Assembly: GCA_043719295.1 (NCBI GenBank)
Contig: JAYSUD010000001.1
Coordinates: 189,799-253,798, forward strand
Length of the DNA stretch: 64,000 nt
Reading direction: 5' to 3'
Source: a bacterium
Lineage (GTDB): Bacteria; Patescibacteriota; Minisyncoccia; Phycocordibacterales; UBA918
In this document: positions 351-13,327 of the stretch, one piece after another
Layout of the letters: the number at the start of each line of letters is the position of its first letter
Numbering within the stretch: the stretch's first letter is position 1
Made by a program: the position numbers and the translations under genes
Notes under the pieces: generated by a model
Database searches by the model: none
What the model was told of the DNA's origin: nothing
What the model saw: the letters and a program-made list of their open reading frames with translations, nothing else

Positions 351-1409
351 ATGGAATACGCAATATTTAAAATCTTGATACCTGCAATTTTATCTTTTGT
401 GATAGGAATTATCATTACCCCACTACTTACTCACTATCTCTATAAACATAGAGTATGGAAAAAAGAAGGGGGCAAGACCGCGTTAAACGGAACTGTTGCA
501 ACTGAGTTCAACCGACTGAAAGGAAATGACGAAACAAAGACCCCACGAATGGGTGGCATCATTATTTGGGGGAGCGTATTTCTGACCGTACTGCTTCTTT
601 TTATCCTTGAGCGACTTTTCCCACAAACCCTCTTTGCAAATCTTGATTTCTTCAGTCGTGAACAAACATGGATACCCCTTTGTACCTTGGCAATTGGTGC
701 AGGCATCGGATTCCTGAACGATTATTATGATGTTCACCATGATGGAAAAGGAATACGTTTGTCAAAACGGATTCTCATGATTTCAATTCTCTCTGGACTT
801 ATAGGTTGGTGGTTTTACTACAAACTTGGCGTATCACACATCGGTATTCCATTTGATGGTTCGTTATACGTTGGAATACTTATTATTCCATTTTTCATCC
901 TCCTTACTAACGCACTTTATGCAAGTGGCGTTATTGACGGTATTGACGGACTTTCAGGCGGAGTTTTTACCTCAATCTTTTTAGCCTATGCAGGAGTTGC
1001 AGTCATTCAATCACAGTTTGAGATTGCTGCGTTGTGTGCAACTATCGCTGGGGCAACATTAGCGTTTACTTGGTTTAATGTTCCACCTGCTCGTTTTTGG
1101 ATGACGGAAACAGGGTCTATGGCACTAACCCTCACACTCTCAGTTATTGTACTCATGACTGACAACCTTGGTGATGGCCACGGCATCTCATTACTCTTTA
1201 TTATTGGACTTCCATTGATTGCAACTGTTGCTTCAAACGTTTTACAAATTTCATACCGCAAAGCAACCGGCAAGAAACTATTTAGAATTGCGCCACTTCA
1301 TCATCACTTTGAAGCTATTGGATGGCCCTCGTATAAGGTGACCATGCGCTATTGGATTATTAGTATTATGTGCGCGTTGCTTGGAGTTATCTTAGCTAGT
1401 ATTTTTTAG
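351..1409 (+). CDS. mraY: phospho-N-acetylmuramoyl-pentapeptide transferase
   Basis: 10-TM protein with D-D-x-D-G and PLHHHFE motifs typical of MraY. Confidence 0.9.
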   Translation: MEYAIFKILIPAILSFVIGIIITPLLTHYLYKHRVWKKEGGKTALNGTVATEFNRLKGNDETKTPRMGGIIIWGSVFLTVLLLFILERLFPQTLFANLDFFSREQTWIPLCTLAIGAGIGFLNDYYDVHHDGKGIRLSKRILMISILSGLIGWWFYYKLGVSHIGIPFDGSLYVGILIIPFFILLTNALYASGVIDGIDGLSGGVFTSIFLAYAGVAVIQSQFEIAALCATIAGATLAFTWFNVPPARFWMTETGSMALTLTLSVIVLMTDNLGDGHGISLLFIIGLPLIATVASNVLQISYRKATGKKLFRIAPLHHHFEAIGWPSYKVTMRYWIISIMCALLGVILASIF

Positions 1410-1432
1410 TAAAACATGTTTATAAAACTTCA

Positions 1433-1530
1433 GATACGAGGCGTGGAGGAGAATAAGGACGAGGCGTACGGGGAGTACGTTGAGTTCTTGGTCGACGACA
1501 ACAACGAAGTAGGTGAGGGTTTTAAACTTG
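1433..1530 (+). repeat. divergent or partial copy of interspersed repeat family 2 (cgaggcgtac / gtacgtt blocks)
   Basis: Shares the cgaggcgt(ac) and gtacgttg blocks with copies at 55561, 60168 and 63291. Lies in the mraY-ftsW spacer. Confidence 0.35.
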
Positions 1531-1534
1531 TTTT

Positions 1535-2632
1535 ATGCAAAAAGGAGTAGACAGAACGTTACTCGGAATAATCATTTTTTTAGTGGTTTTTGGTTTTTTT
1601 GTATTCTCATCTGCTTCTTTAGGACTTCTCGCACGTGATGGAGCAAACTTTTCTTCCGTTGCATTTAGTCAGGTTGTCTTTGGTATTATCGGTGGCGGTT
1701 TAGCGATGTTTTTAACAAGCCAACTCTTTTATCGAAATTGGCGAAAGTACGCATTTCACATTTTTGTTGCAACAATACTTCTTGCGCTTGCAGTACACTT
1801 GCCATACATAGGAAAAGAGTACGGTGGAGCACGACGATGGATTGAGATTTTTGGTTTTTCGTTTCAACCTGCTGAACTCCTAAAAATTGGGTTTATTGTG
1901 TATATGGCAACCTGGCTCTCTGGGATACAGAAAAACATTCACACCTTTAAACAAGGAACATTACCGTTCCTTGGACTTACTTCTATTGTGGGGGTAGTAA
2001 TGCTCATCCAACCTGACACCGACACATTCTTAATCATGGCTACTGCAGCAACGGCAATGTTTATTACTGCGGGAGGGAGGTGGCGTGACGTTGCATTGAT
2101 GTTTTTTGGATCTATACTTCTTCTTGCACTCTTAGCACTTTCTCGCCCATACATCATGGACCGTATCATGACGTTTTTTAATCCAACGTTAGATCCTCAA
2201 GGAAAAAGTTACCAGATACAACAATCACTTATTGCCATTGGTTCAGGAGGGTTTACGGGAAGGGGATTTGGACAAAGTATTCAAAAGTTTGAATACCTTC
2301 CTGAACCAATTGGTGACTCGGTGTTCGCAGTATATGGAGAGGAATTTGGATTTTTAGGTAGTTCACTCTTAGTAATGCTCCTTGCATTTTTTACCTTCCG
2401 TGGATACAAAATTGCTTCACATGCAACAGACTTGTTTGGGATGCTGTTAGTTGTAGGGTTCATGACACTTATAGTTCTTCAAGCATTTTTAAACATCGCC
2501 GCCATGCTCGCCCTAGCCCCCCTAATGGGCCTCCCACTCCCATTCATAAGCCACGGCGGAACGGCCCTCTTAGCCACACTAGCCTCAGTTGGTATTGTAC
2601 TGAACGTATCAAAGTATCAGAAGAAGAAGTAA
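1535..2632 (+). CDS. ftsW: SEDS-family peptidoglycan glycosyltransferase FtsW/RodA
   Basis: Multi-TM SEDS protein. Its position after mraY in the dcw context favours FtsW. Confidence 0.85.
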   Translation: MQKGVDRTLLGIIIFLVVFGFFVFSSASLGLLARDGANFSSVAFSQVVFGIIGGGLAMFLTSQLFYRNWRKYAFHIFVATILLALAVHLPYIGKEYGGARRWIEIFGFSFQPAELLKIGFIVYMATWLSGIQKNIHTFKQGTLPFLGLTSIVGVVMLIQPDTDTFLIMATAATAMFITAGGRWRDVALMFFGSILLLALLALSRPYIMDRIMTFFNPTLDPQGKSYQIQQSLIAIGSGGFTGRGFGQSIQKFEYLPEPIGDSVFAVYGEEFGFLGSSLLVMLLAFFTFRGYKIASHATDLFGMLLVVGFMTLIVLQAFLNIAAMLALAPLMGLPLPFISHGGTALLATLASVGIVLNVSKYQKKK

Positions 2633-2670
2633 GCCACAGAGCGCAAGCGACAATGGCGAACTTCCGTCCC

Positions 2671-2955
2671 GATTTTTGCTGTTGACAGAGAACCTCACTA
2701 TCAGCCTCAGCGTTGCTGTGCTGATAGTAAGGTTCAGCAAAAATCGCTGGACGTCTCGAACGCTGAGATGACTCGACGGCTTGCAGTGATTAGAATTTGT
2801 TCCCAATTTTCTGCTTCTGACCAAGAACAATACTTACTGCCTCAGCTTTGCTGTGCAGAAAGTATTGTTCAGCAGAAACCGCTGGAACTCTCCAACGCTC
2901 AGCTAACTCCTGCTCTTTCTCAACTTCTGGAACTCTCCAACGCTAAAATGACTCC
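2671..2955 (+). repeat. tandem pair of REP-like imperfect hairpins (family 1): conserved loop ctcagcKttgctgt, conserved 3' tail gctggaactctccaacgct (x2)
   Basis: Hairpin A at 2671-2745 (gatttttgctg...cagcaaaaatc, about 30-bp stem). Hairpin B at 2809-2877 (ttctgct...gcagaaagtattgttcagcagaa). A third copy at 23075-23150 has a different stem sequence with the same loop and tail. Confidence 0.6.
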
Positions 2956-3087
2956 GTCTATATAACAAATATTGCTCATTTTTAAAAAAGATGTACGATT
3001 AAGTACAAATAGTTGTTCAAAGTTGTAGGAGATAGTTACAAACTTATTTTAATACCTATGAACAGAATGCCCGAATGGAGCGACTAC

Positions 3088-6000
3088 ATGACTTTTTTAA
3101 TATTGAAAAAAAGTGCGAGCTGTATGCTCGCGCTTTTTGTTTTATTGAGTCCAGTTTTAGTTAGCGCAGTAGAATCAGAAACGACAGTTTCTACTGAGGA
3201 AACATATAGCGTTGTTGAATCAGAAACTGATAGTGCGGCAGTGACTCAAAGTAAGGCAACAAAAGAAACTCCTCCTGCAGAGGCACCTCAACCAGTATCA
3301 CAAAGCTCTTCTGCAACTTCAGAAACTCAAGCGGGTACTTCGTATCTTTACGACCCTGGTGCACGCTCTGATTTCCCTAAAGTAAATACCCAAGATGGAT
3401 CAATGCAGTTTAGTTATGATGTTAAAGTGCCGCAAGGCAGAGGAATTACGACTCCCTCGCTTACTCTCAGTTACAATAGCAATTTTACCGCTCAAAACAG
3501 TGCCTTTGGTTACGGGTGGTCCATTTCTATTCCGAGTATCAAAAGAATGAATAAACAAGGTACAACGTACCTTTATTCAAAAAACTTTTTTGAATCGAGT
3601 TTTGATGGTGAACTAGTGCGTGTTTCTACATCAACATATTTACCCAAGGTTGATACAGGCAGTTATAGAAAATACAATTTTTCAAACAATGTTTGGACTA
3701 TTACAGAAAAAGATGGAACAAAATATATTTTTGGATCTACCACACAATCACGACACAATAACCCTGCAAGTAGCACGCAAATCTACGCATGGAATCTTGA
3801 AGAAGTTCGTGATACCAACAGTAATTATGCTTCGTATACCTACTTCAAAGATCAGGGACAAATTTACCCAAATACTATTACCTATTCAGGAAATAATGTA
3901 ACTCCGGGAGTATTTTCAGTTGTCTTCAACCGTCAAGCAAGAGGGGACGACATAGTGTCATACGAGACAGGGTTTATTGCAACTACTTCATTTAGAATAA
4001 ATCAAATTGAGACACAGCAGAGTAGCTCATGGCTGCAAAGATATGACCTAGGGTATACAACAGGAGCAAATAGTAATCGATCACTACTTTCTTCTGTCAC
4101 TCAATCAGGGAGAGATGAAAGTGGTGTAGTGTCTAGCTTGCCTTCAACAAATTTTTCTTATGAGACACAAACTACAGGAGATAAGCAGTGGACTACTGAT
4201 GCAAGCTGGACTATTCCTGAAAACTTTATAACTGGCTATGCAAACTTAGACGAAGGCGTCCGTGATTTTGATATTAACGGTGACGGACTCATCGATATTA
4301 TTAAATATAAAAATGCGAAGATTTCTCCTACATACGCAGCAACACCTTCACAAACCATCTGGCTCAATACAGGAACTAGTTGGGCTACAACTTCAACGTG
4401 GACACTACCTCAACCCATGGCAACAACCACACCATTTGCATTTGTAGGGTACGAACCAAGTCTGGGTATTAGTAGTGTCGATCTTGGCGCACGTTTTGCT
4501 GACGTTAATGGAGACGGATTCACCGATATTCTTTGGGGATATAAAACAGACACAACAGGAATGCCGTACCCGTATAATCATAATTTTGGAAAGGTGTATC
4601 TTAACAACAAAACAAATGGATTTACTGAAAGTGCTAATTATGCTCTCCCAACAGACATTCGATTTGTAGTACAAAATAAAGACGGAGGGGTACAAATTGC
4701 TGACATTACGGGAGACGGATTGCCAGACTTACTAAAATCATCCAAGATTGTAGCAAATGGAAGTACAACAATTTCAAAAAAAGTGTACGTAAATAATGGT
4801 GTCACATGGGTAACTGCTTCGACATCATGGAGTATTCCTGAGCTCATTTTAGATCAAGGAGAAGATGCGGGAACGAGGGTTATTGATATAAACGGCGACG
4901 GCCTTGCCGATATACTTCGTAATACCGCAAGTGATTACAATCAAGGAACGTTGCAAGTAAATAAAACATATCTTAACACTGGTTACGGATGGAAAGCAGT
5001 TTCAGATACTTGGGATTCACCAGTGCCATTTGTGTATCTCTTTCAAACACACGGAGTTCAATCGCTTTCACCTCGTTTTGTAGATATTAACGGGGATGGA
5101 CTTATAGACATCTATTCAAATCAAAGTGGATCAATCTATTCAAACACCTCAACCCATATAAACACTGGTGAAGGATGGTCTGATCAATCATCAACTTGGA
5201 CTGAGCCACAACTACTGAAGTTTACGTACGCAAACAATGGAACATGGGGTGCAGAGACAGGTGTTCGCTTGATGGACTTAGACGGCGACAACATGATCGA
5301 CTTTGTGAAGTCTGGTCCAAATAACACATACCCAACTGACAGTCACGAGAAAAAAGTGATGATCCATAATGCTACTGTCCCTGATTTGCTTAAAACAGTT
5401 GAGTACCCTGAAGGTGGATTGCTTCAGGTAAGTTACAAACAGTCTCCTTTGTACAAAAACAGTCTTAATAAAAATCGGAATCCGTTACTTCCTCGTGTTC
5501 TTAATACTGTATTTACACTTACATACGATGACAAAGTAACAACACCCTACACAGACACCTACTCGTACGACGGTGGTTCATACTTTTTTGGCTCATCAAC
5601 AAACAGGTACTTTGCAGGATTCGGAACTACTACTGTTGTTGATTCAATTGGAAACATTACAAAATCATATGCTCATCAAGGTAATACATCACAATCCCAA
5701 CTTGGTGAATTTCAAGACTCTGAAGTAAAAATCGGAAAGCAGTATAGTATCGAAAAGTTTGATGTTAACAAAAATCTGTACGCACGAACTATCTCACAGT
5801 GGGAAAGCTATAACCGTGGTAGTGGCGCGACATACGTCTATAAGACAAAGGATCTCACACAGCAATATGATGGTGATACCGACCACAAAGACACAGTAGT
5901 AATTTACAACGTAGGAGCAGCAGCAGGTAACCTAATTACACTCATTGAACTTGGAGAAGTAACTTCAACAACAACTACTGGTGCATTTGTTGACACAGGT

Positions 6001-9000
6001 ACTGACCGAAAAGATACAACATACCAATACGCACAAAATGCTGGACTTACTATTATTGGCCTACCTTCTAAAGAAACGGTAACCAATCAATCTGCAGTCA
6101 AAGTGAGAGAAACAAACTACTACTACGACAATCAAGTACTTGGCACTGCAACTCTTGGTAACGTAACAAAGAAAGAAGACTGGGTTGTTGGTTCAACATA
6201 CGTCAATACCAGAAGCACCTATAACAGCTATGGCCTTCCTACAAAATTGATGAACACCAAAGGGGCGACGACTTCACTTAAGTACGACACACTTAACTTA
6301 TATCCGACAGTTATATCTAATCCGTTGTTGCAAAGTGCAACAAGCTCTTTTGACTATACCAATGGAAGAGAGAAAACTTTATTAACTCCAAACAATGTTC
6401 TCTTTGAGACAAAGTTTGATGGACTTGATAGAGTAATCCAAACAAAAAAACCAGATCCTACTACAGGAGTAAGTACCATTGCAAGCGAACTAAGTTACGG
6501 AACTACGAGAAATGCATTTAATGTATTTTCTACATCCAACGTCACTCCTTCTGTAGCAGTACTTGAATATCAATACCTTGATGGCTTTGGAAGAAAAATT
6601 CAAAATCGAAAAGAAGCTGAAACAGCAGGTCAATACGCCGTATCTGATTACACGTACGGAAAAAACGGCAGGCTCATAAAAGCATCTCTCCCGTACTTTA
6701 GTAATGGTACAAATAAAACTTCACCAACATCACAAATAAACTTATATACTTCATACAAATATGATCCACTTGAGCGCGTAAGTGCTGTGGTGACAACTAT
6801 TGGTACAACATCAACTGCCTATGACCAATGGAGACAAACTGAAACAAATGCAAAGGGAAAACAAAAAGTGTATGTGTATGATGCATACAATAACCTTGTT
6901 GCTGTAGAAGAGAAGGAAGGTGTAAATACCTATACCACAAGTTACCTCTACGACCTTAATAAAAACCTTACCAAAGTTACTGACTCACTGGGGAACATTA
7001 GAAATGCCACCTATGACGGACTCAGTCGTCGCCTTACACTCCAAGATCTTCACGCAACTGCAGATACCACCTTTGGATCCTGGACATCAAGCTACGATAC
7101 AGAAGGGAACATAACTTCAATTACGGACCCTAAAGCTCAAGTTATCAATCGCACCTACGATACACTAAATAGACAACTCACAGAAAACTACACAGGGACT
7201 GCAGGTACAGAACTTACTTATGCGTACGACACCTGTACTAAAGGAATAGGATTCCTCTGTACTGCCAAAAACACTGATGCCACAACTACTTACAAATACA
7301 ATCCTGCCGGGGGAGTGTATGTACAAAATGAAACAGTTGGTAGTACAAAGTACACAGCTACAACAACCTACACACTAAGGGGCGACGTAAGTACTTCAAC
7401 TTATCCAGATCGCGCACAAGTTGTGTATCGATTCGACGGAGCTGGTAACATTACTGCAATAGGAGAAAAAGAACTCACGGGTGCACTTCATGACATAGTA
7501 ACCAACATTGACTACGGTCCACATGGACAAATCATCTACCGTGAAAACGGTAACGGTGTGTATACTAATTACGTGTACGACGCTAACGCCCTCTACAGAC
7601 TCAAAGCACAGAAGACAACCGCTGTTGCAGGCACCGGAGGAAGTGGTGTAGATCAACAAGCACTTGAGGCTGAGCTTATCTTCACACTTCCCCAAAGTAC
7701 AACAACTTTAAGTGATTATACGGGGAGTTTTGCCACCTCAAGTACTGAGGCGACATCAAGCGCAGTTGCTACTGATTTTGAAACTGTGGAAACTTCCGCT
7801 ACTTCGTCACAGAGTACAAAAGCAATAAACCAAGAAATTAAGTCTGCTACAACTACAACACAAATAAAAAAAGATGTCGCCACAACTACACAAAACAGCA
7901 AAGTTGACGTACCAGAATCAGAACGCATCAAAGATGTTCAGGGTGCAAAAATTGCGTCGTCACTCTTAGGTAAAAACTTCCTTGAACGTGCAGAGCTAAA
8001 AGCTCAAGCGATGTCTTTAGTTAAAATTGGAACTTCAACTCCAATAGTTGACAGTAAATTTGGTATAACTCTTGAAATTCAAGCAATTGAAAAAATAGAA
8101 AATGGGGTACAAGTATTTATCCGTGCATGGAAAAATGGAAAACAACTTGGCTTCGGGCCAGATGGTTCTATTGAAATTGAGCGTATTCGTATCATCAATC
8201 CACCGATTCTCGTACGACGCAACGGTCAACTTGTAGAGGACCTCAAGGTAGCACTTGAAGAGTCAGTACTCCATACTGTTGCAAGTATCGGACAAGAAAA
8301 CACATCAATTCTTGCAGGTTCAATCGGGAACACAACTACAACAGTCTATCCTGCTTCAGGTGCAATAAGTCCAGTTGATGGACGATGTTCAGAAGACAGA
8401 TACCCTAGTTGGACACAAGTTAGAGACAGCCTAAATTGTCGAATTAGTAGTGTTGTTGAAGCAAACGGCAATCTTTATAACACACTAGGTACCGGCAGTG
8501 GTGCTTCTAATTATGCAATCACAAGAAACTATACGTTTTTTGATACAAGTGCTATCCCTGATATGGATGCAATTTACTCTGCGACGTATTCGCTTTTTGG
8601 GAATGGACCAGGCGATACAAGTTTGGCAGGTACAGTGCAACGGGTTCATGTAGTAACTTCAAATTCTATAAATTCAAGTAACATCTACACCTCAGATTTT
8701 CCGAGTGTAGGGTCAGTATCATTAGGTGAATCTGACAATTCCTGGGACACTGCAAACTATAACGACTTCCCACTAAACGCAACGGGGATGAGTGCTGTAT
8801 CAAAAGTAGGAATTACAAAATTTGCTATCCGCGGTCACTATGACTTGATGGATATTGTTCCCGACAACGCAAACGAATTCAGTGTTGGTTTCTACTTTGC
8901 AGATCAAGCCGGAACAACCAATGATCCAAAACTCATTGTGCAACACACTGCAAACGCAATTCCACTTCCACCTATATTGCTTAGAACCGAAGGAGTTGCT

Positions 9001-10902
9001 AACCCAACAGGAGTTCAAGATTCTACACCAGATTTTTCTGCAATCTTCAGAGATAGCGATGTCGGTAATGTGGCTTCAGCATACCAATTACAAGTAAGTG
9101 CATCATCAACAAACTGGAATACTCTTGTATGGGATTCACTCCAAACAACCCTTAACCCAACAGTAGCTATTGGTGCCCGAAGTCAAGAAATCGCGTACGG
9201 AGGAGGAGCTTTAGTTCCAAGCACTAATTACTACTGGCGAATTAAATTCTTTGACAACCTCAATACCGCAGGGTCATGGAGTACCACAACCGCAAGCTTC
9301 TCACTTGCAAACTTTATTGGCATTAAACATCTTATCTATAATTACGACGTACTTGGTAACATCACCTCTATTAGCGATGTTACAAATCCACTAAGTGCAA
9401 CCGCTAACGTGTATACCTACGACGACCTCAATCGATTACTAACGTATGCGACAGCACCGGTAACAGTTACTCAAACAGCAGATCCACTCTTACCAACAAT
9501 TGCACTTGGATCAAACACCAATCAAGAAGCATACACATACAACTCCCTTGGCAACCTCCTAACCAAAACAGGACAAGGAAGTTACATATACGCTGGTAAC
9601 ACAGCCTCTTTGTACGCAAATCCTCACGCGCCAACAAGTATAAACAGCGTGTCACACACCTACGACCAAAACGGTAACCTCACCAACAAAGGTACCAACA
9701 CCTACTCATGGCACTATACCAACCGTATGGCAGGCTCTGTTGAAGGTGTAAACACCCTCACATACACATACAACACCCAAGGCCAACGTATCTCAAAGAC
9801 AAAGGGAAGTACAGTAACTCGGTATCCTTTCGTGAATTACGAAGTACGAGGAAGTACCACAACCAAACAAGTGTTCTTAGGGGATACACTGGTAACTACA
9901 ATAGAAAACAACGGCAGCTCCTCCAAAGCCTACCAAGTCCACCCTGACCATCTTGGAAGTACACTCTTTACCACCACAGAACAAGGGAAGGTGGCACAAC
10001 TTTTGTCATACAAACCGTATGGAGAAGAGACTATGGGGACGAGTTCTAATAGAGTACAGAGGCACTATATTGGACAGACCAGTGACAGTGAGACAAGTCT
10101 TGATTACTTGAATGCGAGGTACTATGATCCGAGGAAGGGGGAGTTTATTTCACAGGATCCGGTGTTTTTAAGTAATTCACAGAATCTTGCAAATCCGCAG
10201 TCATTAAACAGTTATAGTTATGCTGAAGGGAATCCTATTAATCGGAAGGATCCAAGTGGGTTGGCTACTTGGCAAGGATCTAAAAAGGCAATCTTAAAAA
10301 GTACAGTAAAGATTCTCCAGAGTTATGAGTCACTTCTTCGAAGTGCAAAAGCCGATCCGGTACGTACAGCTAAAGCTGTGGGAAAGTCTGCGGGGAGTTC
10401 GGCTGTAAATGTACTATTTAATTCTGGTGGAATGACTTATGATGCAGCAGCAGCAACAAGAGACAGCATAAAGAAATTCGGAAACGGTTCTGATGCGGTT
10501 CAAGATCAAATGATTGGGAATGGAGCTGTATTTGTGGTAGGTTTCTTTCTTCCGGGAAAGAATTTAAAGAGGATCCCAGATGATGCCTTAGTGGTTAGAG
10601 GAGGTGGTCCTTCCAACTTCGCCCCAGACAAGTTCAGGATTGCAGAGCATAAAAACGCTCCTGGAGTAGTCGGATTCTCAGTGCAATGTGCTTCAGGAAT
10701 GTGTGCAAATGACCTTGCAAGTAATCTACCAAATCAACAGGTTGCACAAACAACTGTTGCACAAATTAGGGCAGCGGGTGGAGACGTTGTTGCTACACCT
10801 GGCCACGGCCAACATTCAACCGTCACAGGGTTAGATGGGCAAGCAGCAAGTCAAGTGCAGTGGGGATTCTTTACAAACCCTAATCCTTGGGATGGCTCAT
10901 GA
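3088..10902 (+). CDS. secreted giant polymorphic toxin: signal peptide, SpvB/TcB N-domain, FG-GAP/VCBS-like DxNGDG repeats, an FN3-like insert, RHS/YD repeats, an RHS repeat-associated core, a DPSGL cleavage motif and an unclassified C-terminal toxin domain (alternative start at 3013)
   Basis: SpvB-like PSLTLSYNSNF...GYGWSISIP motif. Six DINGDGLIDI-type repeats. Many YxYDxxGRL RHS repeats. YQVHPDHLGS...YKPYGEE...ARYYDPRKGEFISQDPV core. PINRKDPSGL followed by a 212-aa tail. Confidence 0.85.
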   Translation: MTFLILKKSASCMLALFVLLSPVLVSAVESETTVSTEETYSVVESETDSAAVTQSKATKETPPAEAPQPVSQSSSATSETQAGTSYLYDPGARSDFPKVNTQDGSMQFSYDVKVPQGRGITTPSLTLSYNSNFTAQNSAFGYGWSISIPSIKRMNKQGTTYLYSKNFFESSFDGELVRVSTSTYLPKVDTGSYRKYNFSNNVWTITEKDGTKYIFGSTTQSRHNNPASSTQIYAWNLEEVRDTNSNYASYTYFKDQGQIYPNTITYSGNNVTPGVFSVVFNRQARGDDIVSYETGFIATTSFRINQIETQQSSSWLQRYDLGYTTGANSNRSLLSSVTQSGRDESGVVSSLPSTNFSYETQTTGDKQWTTDASWTIPENFITGYANLDEGVRDFDINGDGLIDIIKYKNAKISPTYAATPSQTIWLNTGTSWATTSTWTLPQPMATTTPFAFVGYEPSLGISSVDLGARFADVNGDGFTDILWGYKTDTTGMPYPYNHNFGKVYLNNKTNGFTESANYALPTDIRFVVQNKDGGVQIADITGDGLPDLLKSSKIVANGSTTISKKVYVNNGVTWVTASTSWSIPELILDQGEDAGTRVIDINGDGLADILRNTASDYNQGTLQVNKTYLNTGYGWKAVSDTWDSPVPFVYLFQTHGVQSLSPRFVDINGDGLIDIYSNQSGSIYSNTSTHINTGEGWSDQSSTWTEPQLLKFTYANNGTWGAETGVRLMDLDGDNMIDFVKSGPNNTYPTDSHEKKVMIHNATVPDLLKTVEYPEGGLLQVSYKQSPLYKNSLNKNRNPLLPRVLNTVFTLTYDDKVTTPYTDTYSYDGGSYFFGSSTNRYFAGFGTTTVVDSIGNITKSYAHQGNTSQSQLGEFQDSEVKIGKQYSIEKFDVNKNLYARTISQWESYNRGSGATYVYKTKDLTQQYDGDTDHKDTVVIYNVGAAAGNLITLIELGEVTSTTTTGAFVDTGTDRKDTTYQYAQNAGLTIIGLPSKETVTNQSAVKVRETNYYYDNQVLGTATLGNVTKKEDWVVGSTYVNTRSTYNSYGLPTKLMNTKGATTSLKYDTLNLYPTVISNPLLQSATSSFDYTNGREKTLLTPNNVLFETKFDGLDRVIQTKKPDPTTGVSTIASELSYGTTRNAFNVFSTSNVTPSVAVLEYQYLDGFGRKIQNRKEAETAGQYAVSDYTYGKNGRLIKASLPYFSNGTNKTSPTSQINLYTSYKYDPLERVSAVVTTIGTTSTAYDQWRQTETNAKGKQKVYVYDAYNNLVAVEEKEGVNTYTTSYLYDLNKNLTKVTDSLGNIRNATYDGLSRRLTLQDLHATADTTFGSWTSSYDTEGNITSITDPKAQVINRTYDTLNRQLTENYTGTAGTELTYAYDTCTKGIGFLCTAKNTDATTTYKYNPAGGVYVQNETVGSTKYTATTTYTLRGDVSTSTYPDRAQVVYRFDGAGNITAIGEKELTGALHDIVTNIDYGPHGQIIYRENGNGVYTNYVYDANALYRLKAQKTTAVAGTGGSGVDQQALEAELIFTLPQSTTTLSDYTGSFATSSTEATSSAVATDFETVETSATSSQSTKAINQEIKSATTTTQIKKDVATTTQNSKVDVPESERIKDVQGAKIASSLLGKNFLERAELKAQAMSLVKIGTSTPIVDSKFGITLEIQAIEKIENGVQVFIRAWKNGKQLGFGPDGSIEIERIRIINPPILVRRNGQLVEDLKVALEESVLHTVASIGQENTSILAGSIGNTTTTVYPASGAISPVDGRCSEDRYPSWTQVRDSLNCRISSVVEANGNLYNTLGTGSGASNYAITRNYTFFDTSAIPDMDAIYSATYSLFGNGPGDTSLAGTVQRVHVVTSNSINSSNIYTSDFPSVGSVSLGESDNSWDTANYNDFPLNATGMSAVSKVGITKFAIRGHYDLMDIVPDNANEFSVGFYFADQAGTTNDPKLIVQHTANAIPLPPILLRTEGVANPTGVQDSTPDFSAIFRDSDVGNVASAYQLQVSASSTNWNTLVWDSLQTTLNPTVAIGARSQEIAYGGGALVPSTNYYWRIKFFDNLNTAGSWSTTTASFSLANFIGIKHLIYNYDVLGNITSISDVTNPLSATANVYTYDDLNRLLTYATAPVTVTQTADPLLPTIALGSNTNQEAYTYNSLGNLLTKTGQGSYIYAGNTASLYANPHAPTSINSVSHTYDQNGNLTNKGTNTYSWHYTNRMAGSVEGVNTLTYTYNTQGQRISKTKGSTVTRYPFVNYEVRGSTTTKQVFLGDTLVTTIENNGSSSKAYQVHPDHLGSTLFTTTEQGKVAQLLSYKPYGEETMGTSSNRVQRHYIGQTSDSETSLDYLNARYYDPRKGEFISQDPVFLSNSQNLANPQSLNSYSYAEGNPINRKDPSGLATWQGSKKAILKSTVKILQSYESLLRSAKADPVRTAKAVGKSAGSSAVNVLFNSGGMTYDAAAATRDSIKKFGNGSDAVQDQMIGNGAVFVVGFFLPGKNLKRIPDDALVVRGGGPSNFAPDKFRIAEHKNAPGVVGFSVQCASGMCANDLASNLPNQQVAQTTVAQIRAAGGDVVATPGHGQHSTVTGLDGQAASQVQWGFFTNPNPWDGS

Positions 10903-11282
10903 AAATAAAAAACTTAAGTGATTTGCGTAATGCAGATATAAAATTCAAATTAGAGAAAATACCTACAAACGAAATTATTATAAAAAGCGTAGATAATTTT
11001 TGCGACGGTCCACTAAGTGGAGAATGCACTTGGCGGAACAAAGAATATTATTATCAGTGCTTTGATCAGATTGATCCACATACAGACGAAGATCTTCGCC
11101 CAAGGAAGTATCTTTTGCTTCATTTAACTCCTCAACAATTTAACGAAAATTCTCTACTAGAAAAACTCTATGCCAAAAGTGCAGACAGTGATTCTCTGAG
11201 AAATGAATATCTATTTGAGTATGAAAAATCTACTCCACAAATAATACGTAGAGAACAGATTATCGCTTGGTTTGAGGAATGA
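10899..11282 (+). CDS. putative cognate immunity protein of the RHS toxin
   Basis: Its ATG overlaps the toxin TGA stop (ATGA), which suggests translational coupling. Small cytoplasmic protein with no recognisable domains. The position is typical for RHS immunity genes. Confidence 0.5.
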   Translation: MKIKNLSDLRNADIKFKLEKIPTNEIIIKSVDNFCDGPLSGECTWRNKEYYYQCFDQIDPHTDEDLRPRKYLLLHLTPQQFNENSLLEKLYAKSADSDSLRNEYLFEYEKSTPQIIRREQIIAWFEE

Positions 11283-11411
11283 ACAAAGTGTCGATAGAAT
11301 AGACGCAGCAATAGCTGATAGTTATATGACACCAGCAGGAGACAGTCGCGCAATGGGGCATAAAAGGGGATAAGTCCAATAAAAACTCAAATATCATGGT
11401 CTAATAAATTA

Positions 11412-12083
11412 ATGCCTCGCATGAACAGAGTTGCCGTAGGTAACACTGTGTATCACGTACTTAATCGTGCAAATGGTCGTGCTCAAATCTTTCACACTGA
11501 TGCAGAATACCAACACTTCGAATCACTCCTTTTAGAAGGTGTGGAGCTTATCGGTATGAGAATACTCGCATACTGCATCATGCCAAATCACTGGCATCTT
11601 GTACTCTATCCACATAAGGATGGAAATATGAGTGAGTTTATGCGGTGGGTTACTACCACACATGTTCGACAACGACGGACACAAACAAAAAGTGTCGGTG
11701 CAGGTCATTTGTATCAAGGTACATACAAATCGTTTCCAATTGAAACCGATCACCATTTACTCACCGTGATACGCTATGTTGAACAAAATCCATTACGAGC
11801 AAAGCTTGTGACTCAAGCAGAACAATGGCAATGGTCATCTTTATATAGAAGGGAGAGAAATAATGACGAAGATAAAAAGTTTCTGTCAGTACTTCCAACA
11901 GAATTACCAGAGAATTATCTTGAATCAGTTAATACTATTCTTTCTGAATCAGTTCTAACCAGCGTTCGTCATTCTCTCACCAAGGGTACTCCGTATGGTG
12001 GAGATATTTGGACAAGGGAGATGATTGATAAGTATAATTTAGGGAGTACCATACGAGGTCCAGGGAGACCAAGATTAGATTAA
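11412..12083 (+). CDS. IS200/IS605-family HUH tyrosine transposase-like protein (RAYT-like, COG1943) with a C-terminal extension
   Basis: HUH motif CIMPNHWHLVLYP and a catalytic-Tyr region HLYQGTYKS. No TnpB partner. A single gene flanked by repeat-rich DNA. Confidence 0.75.
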   Translation: MPRMNRVAVGNTVYHVLNRANGRAQIFHTDAEYQHFESLLLEGVELIGMRILAYCIMPNHWHLVLYPHKDGNMSEFMRWVTTTHVRQRRTQTKSVGAGHLYQGTYKSFPIETDHHLLTVIRYVEQNPLRAKLVTQAEQWQWSSLYRRERNNDEDKKFLSVLPTELPENYLESVNTILSESVLTSVRHSLTKGTPYGGDIWTREMIDKYNLGSTIRGPGRPRLD

Positions 12084-12208
12084 TATTACAACATGAATAT
12101 TGCAGAAATAACGGACGTATCCCTGTTACCTCAAAAATAGAAATCTACCCTCCTCTGTTTTAGTTGCAACTATAGATTGTTGTAGTGCTATACTTATTTC
12201 AATAATTT

Positions 12209-13327
12209 ATGATCAAGATTGTTCTAGTTGGAGGGGGGAGTGGAGGGCATTTTTATCCGCTTATTGCGGTAGCTGAGCAAGTGGCAGCGTATAAAAAAAG
12301 AGGACTTGATGTAGAGATGTACTACATGGGTACAGAGGCCTATAACCAGGCTGACCTTGATGCCAATGGGATTTCTTTTATCTACTGTCCATCGGGAAAG
12401 AGACGAAAGTATTTTTCACTCTTAAACTATTTTGATATTTTTAAAGTTATCTATGGTTTTTTTGTAGCGGTTTATAAACTGTACATTCTCTATCCTGATG
12501 TTGTCTTTAGTAAGGGAAGTTATACGAGCGTTCCGGTAACGCTTGCTGCATGGGTGTTACGTATTCCGGTTGTTGTACACGAATCAGACACACGTCCCGG
12601 AAGTGCAAACAAACTTGAGTCACGGTTTGCACGATACGTTGCAATTTCTTTTGAAGAAGTAGCACAGTACTTTCCTCAAGACAAAATTGGACTTACTGGA
12701 ATCCCACTTCGTAAAGCGTTTGTAGAAAAAATTGATAATCCTGTTATGGAGCTTGGGCTACCTTCTGACAAACCACTCATCTTTGTTACCGGTGGTTCTT
12801 TTGGTGCACAGCGACTTAATAACCTCATTTTAGAATCGCTTAACGAACTGTTGCCTTCATACGTCATACTCCATCAAACAGGGGAGACCAATGCAAAAGA
12901 AGTGCAGAGTTATGCGTCAACTATTATTAATGATACACAACTCCTTGCGCACTACTTTGTAAAAGGTTCTTTAACAGCGAGAGAAATGAACCTTGCTTCA
13001 AGTGTTGCGTCACTTATCATCTCAAGAGCGGGAACGGGAAGTATCTATGAAATAGCTCAAAAAGGGAAGCCGGCAATTTTGATCCCAATACCCGAAGCAA
13101 TTAGCCACGATCAAAAGACAAACGCATATGCGTATGCACGAACGGGAGGTGCGTCGGTCCTTGAGGAGGGGAATTTAACTGACGGTTTGCTTGCTTCTGA
13201 AATTAGCCGTATTATGGAAAACCAAGAGGTATACGATTCTATGCAGAAAAATGCACTCGCATTTGGACATACTGACGCGAGCCTAAAGATTGCTGATACC
13301 CTAATTGGGATCGCTCAAGAACACTAG
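12209..13327 (+). CDS. murG: undecaprenyldiphospho-muramoylpentapeptide beta-N-acetylglucosaminyltransferase
   Basis: GGGSGGHFYP N-terminal motif and GT28 family architecture. dcw context. Confidence 0.9.
   Translation: MIKIVLVGGGSGGHFYPLIAVAEQVAAYKKRGLDVEMYYMGTEAYNQADLDANGISFIYCPSGKRRKYFSLLNYFDIFKVIYGFFVAVYKLYILYPDVVFSKGSYTSVPVTLAAWVLRIPVVVHESDTRPGSANKLESRFARYVAISFEEVAQYFPQDKIGLTGIPLRKAFVEKIDNPVMELGLPSDKPLIFVTGGSFGAQRLNNLILESLNELLPSYVILHQTGETNAKEVQSYASTIINDTQLLAHYFVKGSLTAREMNLASSVASLIISRAGTGSIYEIAQKGKPAILIPIPEAISHDQKTNAYAYARTGGASVLEEGNLTDGLLASEISRIMENQEVYDSMQKNALAFGHTDASLKIADTLIGIAQEH

Follow-up and report, generated by a model that had tools for sequence, protein, structure and literature searches.

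The locus described here raises the question of what kind of warhead a giant RHS protein of a patescibacterium carries at its C-terminus, and whether the small gene that follows protects the producer from it. The locus lies in a 64,000-nt stretch of contig JAYSUD010000001.1 (GenBank assembly GCA_043719295.1; this whole stretch is hereafter the window), and an earlier note based on reading its letters had described a secreted SpvB/TcB-RHS toxin with an unclassified tip and a translationally coupled immunity gene. Using sequence profile searches, structure prediction and gene-neighborhood comparisons we find that the last part of the tip belongs to a sizeable family without annotation, which is predicted to adopt an ADP-ribosyltransferase (ART)-like fold and displays a non-canonical set of conserved residues. 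We consider it moderately likely that the protein is a Sec-exported, fused TcB/TcC-type RHS polymorphic toxin with an NAD+-using ART-like tip and an accompanying immunity protein.

The tip spans nt 10264-10899 (212 residues) and contains the segments VVRGGGPSNF, CASGMC and GHGQHSTVTG, all as the earlier note had recorded. Sequence searches against Pfam, NCBIfam, PADLOC and the PDB recovered nothing for it, including any domain of known non-toxic function. A profile search of the PDB with an alignment of the tip family likewise returned only noise and no ART chain; a weak MacroD stretch in the PDB profile search (E~0.1) was regarded as chance. An alignment of the homologs showed that conservation is confined to the last ~110 residues, with the pattern ALVVRGG … G-x-x-G-F-S … IRAAGGDV..T.G…H-A-T-V-T-G … NP. 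The preceding part of the tip is a linker in which hydropathy marks a hydrophobic segment, GAVFVVGFFLPG.

The initial search for relatives of the tip in 5.8 billion proteins recovered 19, mostly C-terminal pieces of RHS proteins. A profile search with the domain recovered more than 1,275 proteins, the majority of them stand-alone, 106-115 residues in length and 40-50% identical to the domain in the window; these come from Gemmataceae, Poribacteria, Stenotrophomonas and other organisms. When 1.84 billion cluster representatives (50% identity) were scanned with HMMER, 234 matched at E<=1e-30, including RHS proteins of 1,000-3,300 residues; the 33,300 matches at E<=0.001 in that scan are inflated by RHS-core columns in the profile and are not a family size. 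None of the 139 family members that we aligned has a Pfam match over the domain, NCBIfam and PADLOC yielded nothing for them either, and a tblastn search of 72,556 plasmids with the tip domain gave no match. The stand-alone homologs P0009, P0023 and P0076 (~109-134 residues) bear the name 'flavoredoxin' at NCBI, which looks like a mis-annotation, as neither a flavoredoxin model nor any other matches their sequences.

To what fold might this domain belong? AlphaFold2, run on the translation of nt 10567-10899 with the 139-sequence alignment, gave a model with a predicted local distance difference test score (pLDDT) of 94.6 and a predicted template-modelling score (pTM) of 0.87, in which the secondary structure elements follow the order beta-alpha-beta-beta-alpha-beta-alpha-beta-beta-alpha-beta. 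Structure comparison with this model placed AvrPphF ORF2 first (score 7.9; 85/111 residues aligned), followed by Tpt1/KptA (6.5 and 5.3), OspC3/CopC (5.6-4.9) and the Rhs toxins TreX (5.0) and TreTu (4.3). Further matches include CARDS, Scabin, diphtheria toxin, pertussis-like toxins, DarT, RES/MbcT, Tse2, DUF952, C3, PARPs and Tne2, and nearly all of the top 40 have the ART-superfamily fold. A Foldseek search of the PDB, a check that the earlier note had proposed, found nothing significant (best E 0.67), its two best matches again being AvrPphF ORF2 and Tpt1. The domain is predicted to be a split beta-sheet ART-like fold because the model is confident and one structure-comparison method agrees on this assignment, with no support from sequence profiles. 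By sequence, then, the tip stays unclassified, as had been said, but the predicted fold of its last 111 residues points to a class that the earlier note could not assign.

The conservation pattern of the family suggests a candidate active site. Across the 139 sequences R112, T178, H184 and N205 (tip numbering) are each present in 139/139, R169 and T186 in 138/139, S139 in 137/139 and D174 in 133/139; position 141 is E in 127 and Q in 8, the window among the latter, and position 131 is H in 130 and N in the window. R112 closes strand 1 ('VVRGG') and S139 lies in 'G-F-S' on the second long strand, matching in position and context the R and the STS motif of the R-S-E ARTs. In the target cytoplasm the domain would most likely bind NAD+ through R112 and S139 and then either ADP-ribosylate an essential protein or nucleic acid or break down NAD+, with H184, T178 and possibly D174 and Q/E141 completing the site. 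Candidates for the third catalytic element are H184, where a late strand begins, together with T178 nearby in the hairpin, or else D174, where the strand before it begins. Since P0006 and the tip of metagenome locus L011 have Q in place of D174, this residue is not essential.

The same residues admit a different chemistry, in which an ART-like scaffold acts without NAD+, for instance as a metal-independent RNase or phosphotransferase, with H184, together with R112, R169 and T178, performing acid-base chemistry on RNA. The invariant polar set of the family (R, R, H, T, T, N) is indeed not R-S-ExE, no sequence link to any NAD+-using family was found, and the second-best structural neighbours, Tpt1/KptA, act on RNA. 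Yet Tpt1 is itself NAD+-dependent, and the 'hhRGG' of beta1 and the 'G-aromatic-S' of beta2 look like the R and STS motifs with which the R-S-E clade binds NAD+. We therefore regard an enzyme that dispenses with NAD+ as unlikely.

Gene-neighborhoods of the stand-alone forms provided a further view of the family. In two loci, one in a 9.3-Mb genome and the other on a 399-kb contig, the stand-alone toxin gene is followed 15-18 nt downstream by a conserved ORF (open reading frame) of ~100 codons, whose product, which we call the DFNN family, is marked by the motif …ADFHNAD.QGRIRLN.IGT..DL…. A DFNN hidden Markov model (HMM) matched the ORF directly downstream of the toxin gene in 10/11 genome loci and 23/25 metagenome loci (33/36 together), and the family also follows the RHS tips of P0001 (with a 4-nt overlap), P0002, P0005 and P0012. 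It has no Pfam match and is not a macrodomain, Xre or ParS-type antitoxin. The stand-alone pairs, as in loci L001, L003, L022 and L025, look from their gene order like an unannotated toxin-antitoxin-like module, and they occur in Planctomycetota, Cyanobacteria, Poribacteria, Armatimonadota and Xanthomonadales.

The ORF behind the toxin in the window codes for a different protein of 127 residues. Its start codon overlaps the stop codon of the toxin gene as ATGA (ATG 10899, TGA 10900-10902), just as the earlier note had observed. Searches of Pfam, NCBIfam, PADLOC and PDB sequences returned nothing for this protein; only three homologs were found (54-57% identity), and a metagenome scan with the 127-aa family gave no confirmed locus. 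On three metagenome contigs (L011-L013) a homolog begins 4 nt downstream of an RHS core with its tip; this tip belongs, as a divergent member, to the same toxin family (HMM E 1.3e-12), keeping the R, S and H and having Q for D174. In a further locus, L014, another RHS tip and the immunity gene of that tip precede a homolog, an arrangement seen in immunity arrays. Alignment of the 127-aa family to the DFNN family with hhalign (6, then 32 sequences) paired only 9-14 N-terminal residues, with a probability of 0.7-1.5%, and the two are treated as unrelated on the strength of these comparisons. Their N-termini nevertheless begin alike, with MKIKN.LD[LF].N[AS][DE] in the 127-aa family (window 10899-10945) and MKP.N….DFNN.D in the other (from L001 4354, L010 1163 and others); this shared motif could be due to chance or could be a common toxin-contacting peptide. 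On L011 (1197-2351) the 127-aa-family member is directly followed by a gene whose product has a signal peptide, a short RHS core and a tip of another kind; tip/immunity units thus stand in tandem there.

These contexts bear on whether the 127-aa protein is the cognate immunity protein, as had been claimed. It might instead be an unrelated or orphan immunity or accessory gene left behind by cassette exchange; the toxin would then be directed against other organisms, with the producer protected otherwise or not at all. The usual partner of the toxin family is, after all, the unrelated DFNN protein, which also accompanies P0001, the closest relative of the tip (62% identity), and in one case a gene of the 127-aa family stands as an orphan within an immunity array that follows a different toxin. 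Speaking for a cognate pair are the ATGA overlap, the recurrence of the same rare family, on three metagenome contigs, behind a second toxin of this family that is divergent, and the lack of any DFNN homolog in the 64-kb window; furthermore, for polymorphic toxins it is an established point that several immunity families can serve a single fold (PMC3482391). We consequently think it improbable that the gene is a non-cognate remnant, and judge that the 127-aa protein likely represents a second family of immunity proteins, and a rare one, for this toxin fold. The earlier claim of a coupled immunity gene is thus plausible, though the gene is not the usual partner of the toxin family. By binding the toxin domain the 127-aa protein would shield the producer, as gene order and recurrence suggest. 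An enzymatic, ADP-ribose-removing mode of immunity was considered and rejected, the protein giving no hydrolase or macrodomain signal.

Seen together with the stand-alone modules, the family might constitute an unnamed ART clade with an R-S…T…H site lacking ExE, which exists mainly as toxin-DFNN modules (in Planctomycetota, Cyanobacteria, Poribacteria, Armatimonadota and Pseudomonadota), was recruited repeatedly as an RHS warhead, acts by a novel chemistry or on a novel target and is countered by two structurally unrelated immunity families. We put this forward only tentatively.

The earlier note had proposed that the tip be sought on other carriers, and it was found both on several kinds of RHS carrier and as stand-alone proteins of ~109 residues. 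The carriers, which come from several phyla, include SpvB-FG-GAP-RHS proteins in a gammaproteobacterial metagenome-assembled genome (MAG), DUF6531-RHS proteins in Actinomycetes, Big_7/PKD-RHS proteins in Lysobacter and Arenimonas, another long RHS protein in Tahibacter and, in a MAG of Ca. Komeilibacteria, an RHS fragment; each of the ten longer representatives scanned was either an RHS protein or matched no family. P0001 and P0002 form a mosaic, sharing 94% identity in the linker and only 49% in the toxin domain, which indicates recombination at the KRIPDDALVVRGG junction. By these comparisons the toxin domain behaves as a cassette that appears to move among RHS carrier types by recombination. 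A set of short gammaproteobacterial homologs (P0008, P0011 and P0013-P0015; 234-253 residues) consists of a signal-peptide-like N-terminus joined directly to the final ~40 residues of an Rhs core (RFLS.DPV…NPYR..DPDGR), after which come a linker and the toxin domain; an RHS shell is missing.

The toxin gene itself is a single plus-strand frame that runs from TTG 3013 or ATG 3088 to 10902, with no internal stop codon. The length of 2629 residues given in the earlier note is that of the frame opened mechanically at TTG 3013 and conflicts with the start at 3088 that the same note gave, from which the protein has 2,604 residues. ATG 3088 is the best-supported start because a GGAG lies 7 nt upstream of it and the product opens immediately with the signal-peptide-like MTFLILKKSASCMLALFVLLSPVLVSA/VES; other gene callers chose ATG 3058 (2,614 residues) or ATG 3124, an internal Met (2,592 residues). 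In an independent Logan assembly (SRR22198340), 2,192 nt covering the 3' end of the toxin gene, the 127-aa ORF and the transposase gene match at 100% identity, and therefore the toxin ORF, uninterrupted in both assemblies, is not an assembly artefact. The same protein is also present in a public protein collection.

The layout of the carrier (Table 1) agrees with what the earlier note had read from the sequence: signal peptide, SpvB domain, propeller, TcdB_toxin_midN, RHS repeats with an FN3-like insert and a Ser/Thr-rich linker, and a core extending to DPSGL were each recovered, the signal peptide by inspection and the others chiefly by Pfam and NCBIfam models. The SpvB region further gives a weak PDB sequence match to TcdB1 (6l7i_F; E 1.6e-6). 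Six D-x-[NTD]-G-D-[GN] motifs, at residues 395, 472, 539, 600, 666 and 730, are spaced ~65 residues apart, which fits a six-bladed propeller; the six repeats described earlier are thus present, but only four are exact DxNGDG. The RHS region, also matched by NCBIfam TIGR01643, has YxYD motifs up to residue 1495 and again only at 2084 and 2109. The insertion that fills this gap is made up of an S/T-rich linker (residues 1521-1600; 40-43% S+T), ~360 residues without any family and an Ig/FN3-like domain whose PDB sequence matches are solely to the N-terminal Ig domains of rhamnosidases; we speculate that the insertion is a candidate binding module facing outward from the shell. The core carries the aspartyl autoprotease motifs …YYDPRKGEFISQDP…NPINRKDPSGL. 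With RHS/YD repeats, a core ending in DPxGL and an N-terminal module of signal peptide, SpvB and propeller, the carrier is a member of the known SpvB/TcB-type (TcdB/TcaC-type) class of RHS polymorphic toxins.

Table 1. Features of the toxin cassette, with positions in the window, residues of the toxin protein where given, and the supporting evidence.
Feature	Position	Strand	Evidence or remark
Predicted Sec signal peptide MTFLILKKSASCMLALFVLLSPVLVSA	3088..3168	+	Sequence inspection: KK, hydrophobic core, VSA
SpvB, residues 101-258	3388..3861	+	Pfam PF03534, E 1.2e-16
FG-GAP/integrin-like beta-propeller	4225..5322 (approximate bounds)	+	Pfam FG-GAP_3, FG-GAP; motif regex
TcdB_toxin_midN, residues 715-860	5230..5667	+	Pfam PF12256, E 1.2e-14
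RHS/YD shell part 1, residues ~861-1515	5668..7632 (approximate)	+	Pfam RHS_repeat, NCBIfam YD_repeat_2x, weak DUF6443
~560-aa insertion in RHS repeats, residues ~1516-2075	7633..9312	+	YxYD gap, S/T content, PF25788
Ig_Rha78A_N (Ig/FN3-like), residues 1965-2068	8980-9291	+	Pfam PF25788, E 4.5e-13
RHS/YD shell part 2, residues ~2076-2307	9313..10008	+	YxYD at 2084, 2109; BLASTP to P0177 RHS region
Rhs-associated core, residues 2308-2392	10009..10263	+	NCBIfam TIGR03696, 69.2 bits vs cutoff 32.5
Tip linker, tip residues 1-101	10264..10566	+	Predicted helical or low-complexity; kept in P0001, P0002, P0005
ART-like toxin domain (predicted), 111 aa, C-terminal part of tip	10567..10899	+	
127-aa ORF, candidate immunity protein of rare family	10899..11282	+	ATG 10899 overlaps toxin TGA as ATGA
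Y1 (IS200/REP-associated-like) tyrosine transposase	11412..12083	+	Pfam Y1_Tnp, E 6e-16

These features suggest how the warhead might be delivered. The signal peptide would carry the toxin across the membrane, and by homology to the BC cocoon of the Tc toxins and to Rhs proteins the SpvB domain, the six-bladed FG-GAP propeller and ~1,000 residues of YD repeats would form a closed shell. Going by its motifs, the aspartyl protease of the core would cut at or just after DPSGL and leave the 212-residue (23-kDa) tip loose inside this shell, and, more speculatively, the hydrophobic linker of ~100 residues might help in membrane passage.

The same architecture could be taken to mean that a classical Tc complex directed at eukaryotes has this protein as its BC subunit, with TcA encoded elsewhere in the genome: SpvB, propeller, TcdB_mid_N and RHS are the components of TcB-TcC, the weak match to TcdB1 points the same way, and the window takes in just 64 kb of a contig that is at least 269 kb long. 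The window holds no TcA-like gene, however, in agreement with the earlier note; its largest other ORF codes for 722 residues, a flavin adenine dinucleotide (FAD) oxidase, and its bigger ORFs are housekeeping enzymes. The toxin moreover has its own signal peptide, and the tightly coupled candidate immunity gene, together with the intracellular two-gene modules of the tip family in free-living bacteria, points to bacterial targets. Finally, proteins combining signal peptide, SpvB, propeller and RHS were recognised by Zhang et al. (2012) as self-standing 'TcdB/TcaC' polymorphic toxins (PMC3482391). A Tc complex directed at eukaryotes is thus a very remote prospect in our estimation.

Several observations nonetheless weigh against a polymorphic toxin with an NAD+-using ART-like tip and its own immunity protein. 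The domain shows no sequence or profile link to any ART family in searches of Pfam, NCBIfam, PADLOC and PDB profiles. The canonical third catalytic residue is absent, there being neither an ExE motif nor a late-strand Glu, so that neither of the known ART catalytic triads (R-S-E with ExE; H-Y-[EDQ]) is present and the domain is not a canonical R-S-E enzyme. The tip in the window itself has Q141 and N131 where most members have E and H, and D174 gives way to Q in the two cases named above. The 127-aa family occurs beside this toxin family in just two independent contexts and is unrelated to the usual partner, and the 64-kb window contains no TcA-like, type VI secretion system (T6SS) or type VII secretion system (T7SS) gene that might deliver the carrier.

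Several characterised systems resemble parts of the locus. The TcB-TcC cocoon of Photorhabdus and Yersinia (e.g. TcdB2-TccC3) and the TcdB/TcaC-type toxins (PMC3482391) share with it the SpvB domain, FG-GAP-like propeller, TcdB_mid_N, RHS/YD shell, aspartyl-protease motif and a variable tip after DPxGL. Unlike TcB-TcC, the toxin in the window is one fused polypeptide with a signal peptide and no TcA gene nearby, it has a shell insertion of ~560 residues (S/T linker, region without family, Ig/FN3-like domain), and it is followed by a putative immunity gene, implying bacterial targets.

The warhead of the protein can be compared with the Rhs ARTs of T6SSs (Tre1, TreX, TreTu, Tre23, TreThr), whose targets are FtsZ for Tre1 and TreX, EF-Tu for TreTu, 23S rRNA for Tre23 and tRNA for TreThr. 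They too have a small (~110-130 residues) ART-fold domain at the Rhs C-terminus and a small, non-enzymatic immunity protein encoded directly downstream, as is proposed for the window. The tip in the window differs from them in having no detectable sequence similarity and no ExE/ARTT (ADP-ribosylating turn-turn) motif, but a conserved R-S…T…H with D and E/Q as extra candidates, and its carrier is of the Sec/SpvB type as against their PAAR/VgrG/T6SS carriers. The tip may work like the Rhs ART toxins TreX, Tre1 and TreTu (PMC11606950).

The best structural match, the AvrPphF ORF2/HopF2-EspJ-SeoC group, has Arg72 and Asp174 in place of the canonical H/E (PMC8120803), of which R112 and D174 of the tip are reminiscent. 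Against this, identity is only 12-14%, the Pfam AvrPphF-ORF-2 model does not match, D174 is not invariant in the family, and the AvrPphF/HopF proteins are eukaryote-directed type III secretion (T3SS) effectors with chaperones, unlike RHS tips with immunity proteins. The Tpt1/KptA C-lobe and DUF952 (CC0527) are alike in being minimal NAD+-binding lobes of similar size, and H184-x-T186 resembles the ribose-contacting HX[S/T] motif of Tpt1 and DUF952 ARTs (PMC8120803), which is a lead only. In contrast to these, the H-x-T of the tip is on a late strand and not on beta1, there is no winged-helix RNA-binding lobe, and no R-H-R-R tetrad lies in register in the family. Two-gene organization, with stand-alone homologs of ~109 residues and a small downstream partner, is shared with the ART-fold toxin-antitoxin toxins DarT, ParT and RES/MbcT, but these lack any sequence relationship to the family, the DFNN partner is not of the macrodomain, Xre or ParS type, and the toxin gene comes first.

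The surroundings of the cassette are of a housekeeping nature. It stands inside the dcw (division and cell wall) cluster, between ftsW (1535-2632) and murG (12209-13327) with mraY upstream, and the toxin, immunity and transposase genes are arranged in the order mraY, ftsW, [cassette], murG (window 351-13327); neighbours include MraY, FtsW, MurG, GltX, an M23 peptidase and glucose-6-phosphate dehydrogenase (G6PD). In another assembly, on JACCDV010372827.1, a related RHS fragment (P0002) whose tip is of this family and which has a DFNN partner sits directly upstream of mraZ-rsmH-ftsL-ftsI. The Y1 transposase behind the 127-aa ORF scored 64.7 bits against NCBIfam REP_Tyr_transpos, under the cutoff of 80, and with 223 residues is longer than a typical IS200 TnpA; it possibly provides the mobility context of the cassette. 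No flanking direct or inverted repeats bound the cassette, the sole shared element being a 12-nt inverted match that is likely due to chance, and elsewhere the window holds no second tip, other RHS fragment or DFNN gene.

Between ftsW and the toxin gene we also noted two tandem copies of a ~100-nt element (2673-2774 and 2808-2909; period 135 nt; 76% identity). Both fold as long nested hairpins (2670-2746 and 2805-2880; RNA minimum free energy (MFE) -51.5 and -40.3 kcal/mol; z -4.3 and -5.6), and the arms of the stems diverge between the copies yet remain complementary. The element has no Rfam family and occurs in only these two copies within the 64-kb window; it may represent REP (repetitive extragenic palindromic)/IS200-type hairpins tied to the Y1 transposase, a pair of terminators or a 5' leader.

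RHS cocoon toxins with exchangeable tips are well known and new RHS tips are common, whereas ART-fold tips such as Tre1, TreX, TreTu, Tre23 and TreThr are an active field where every new family has brought a new cellular target to light. What is new here is a family of ART-like toxin domains that lacks annotation: its set of conserved residues is non-canonical, it is widespread as a stand-alone pair of genes, and it is accompanied by two partner families with no relation to each other. Should the tip prove to be an ordinary NADase or protein-Arg ART, the finding would shrink to one more polymorphic toxin. As it stands, the locus offers a testable handle on a sizeable family of toxin domains whose public annotation is blank or reads 'flavoredoxin'.

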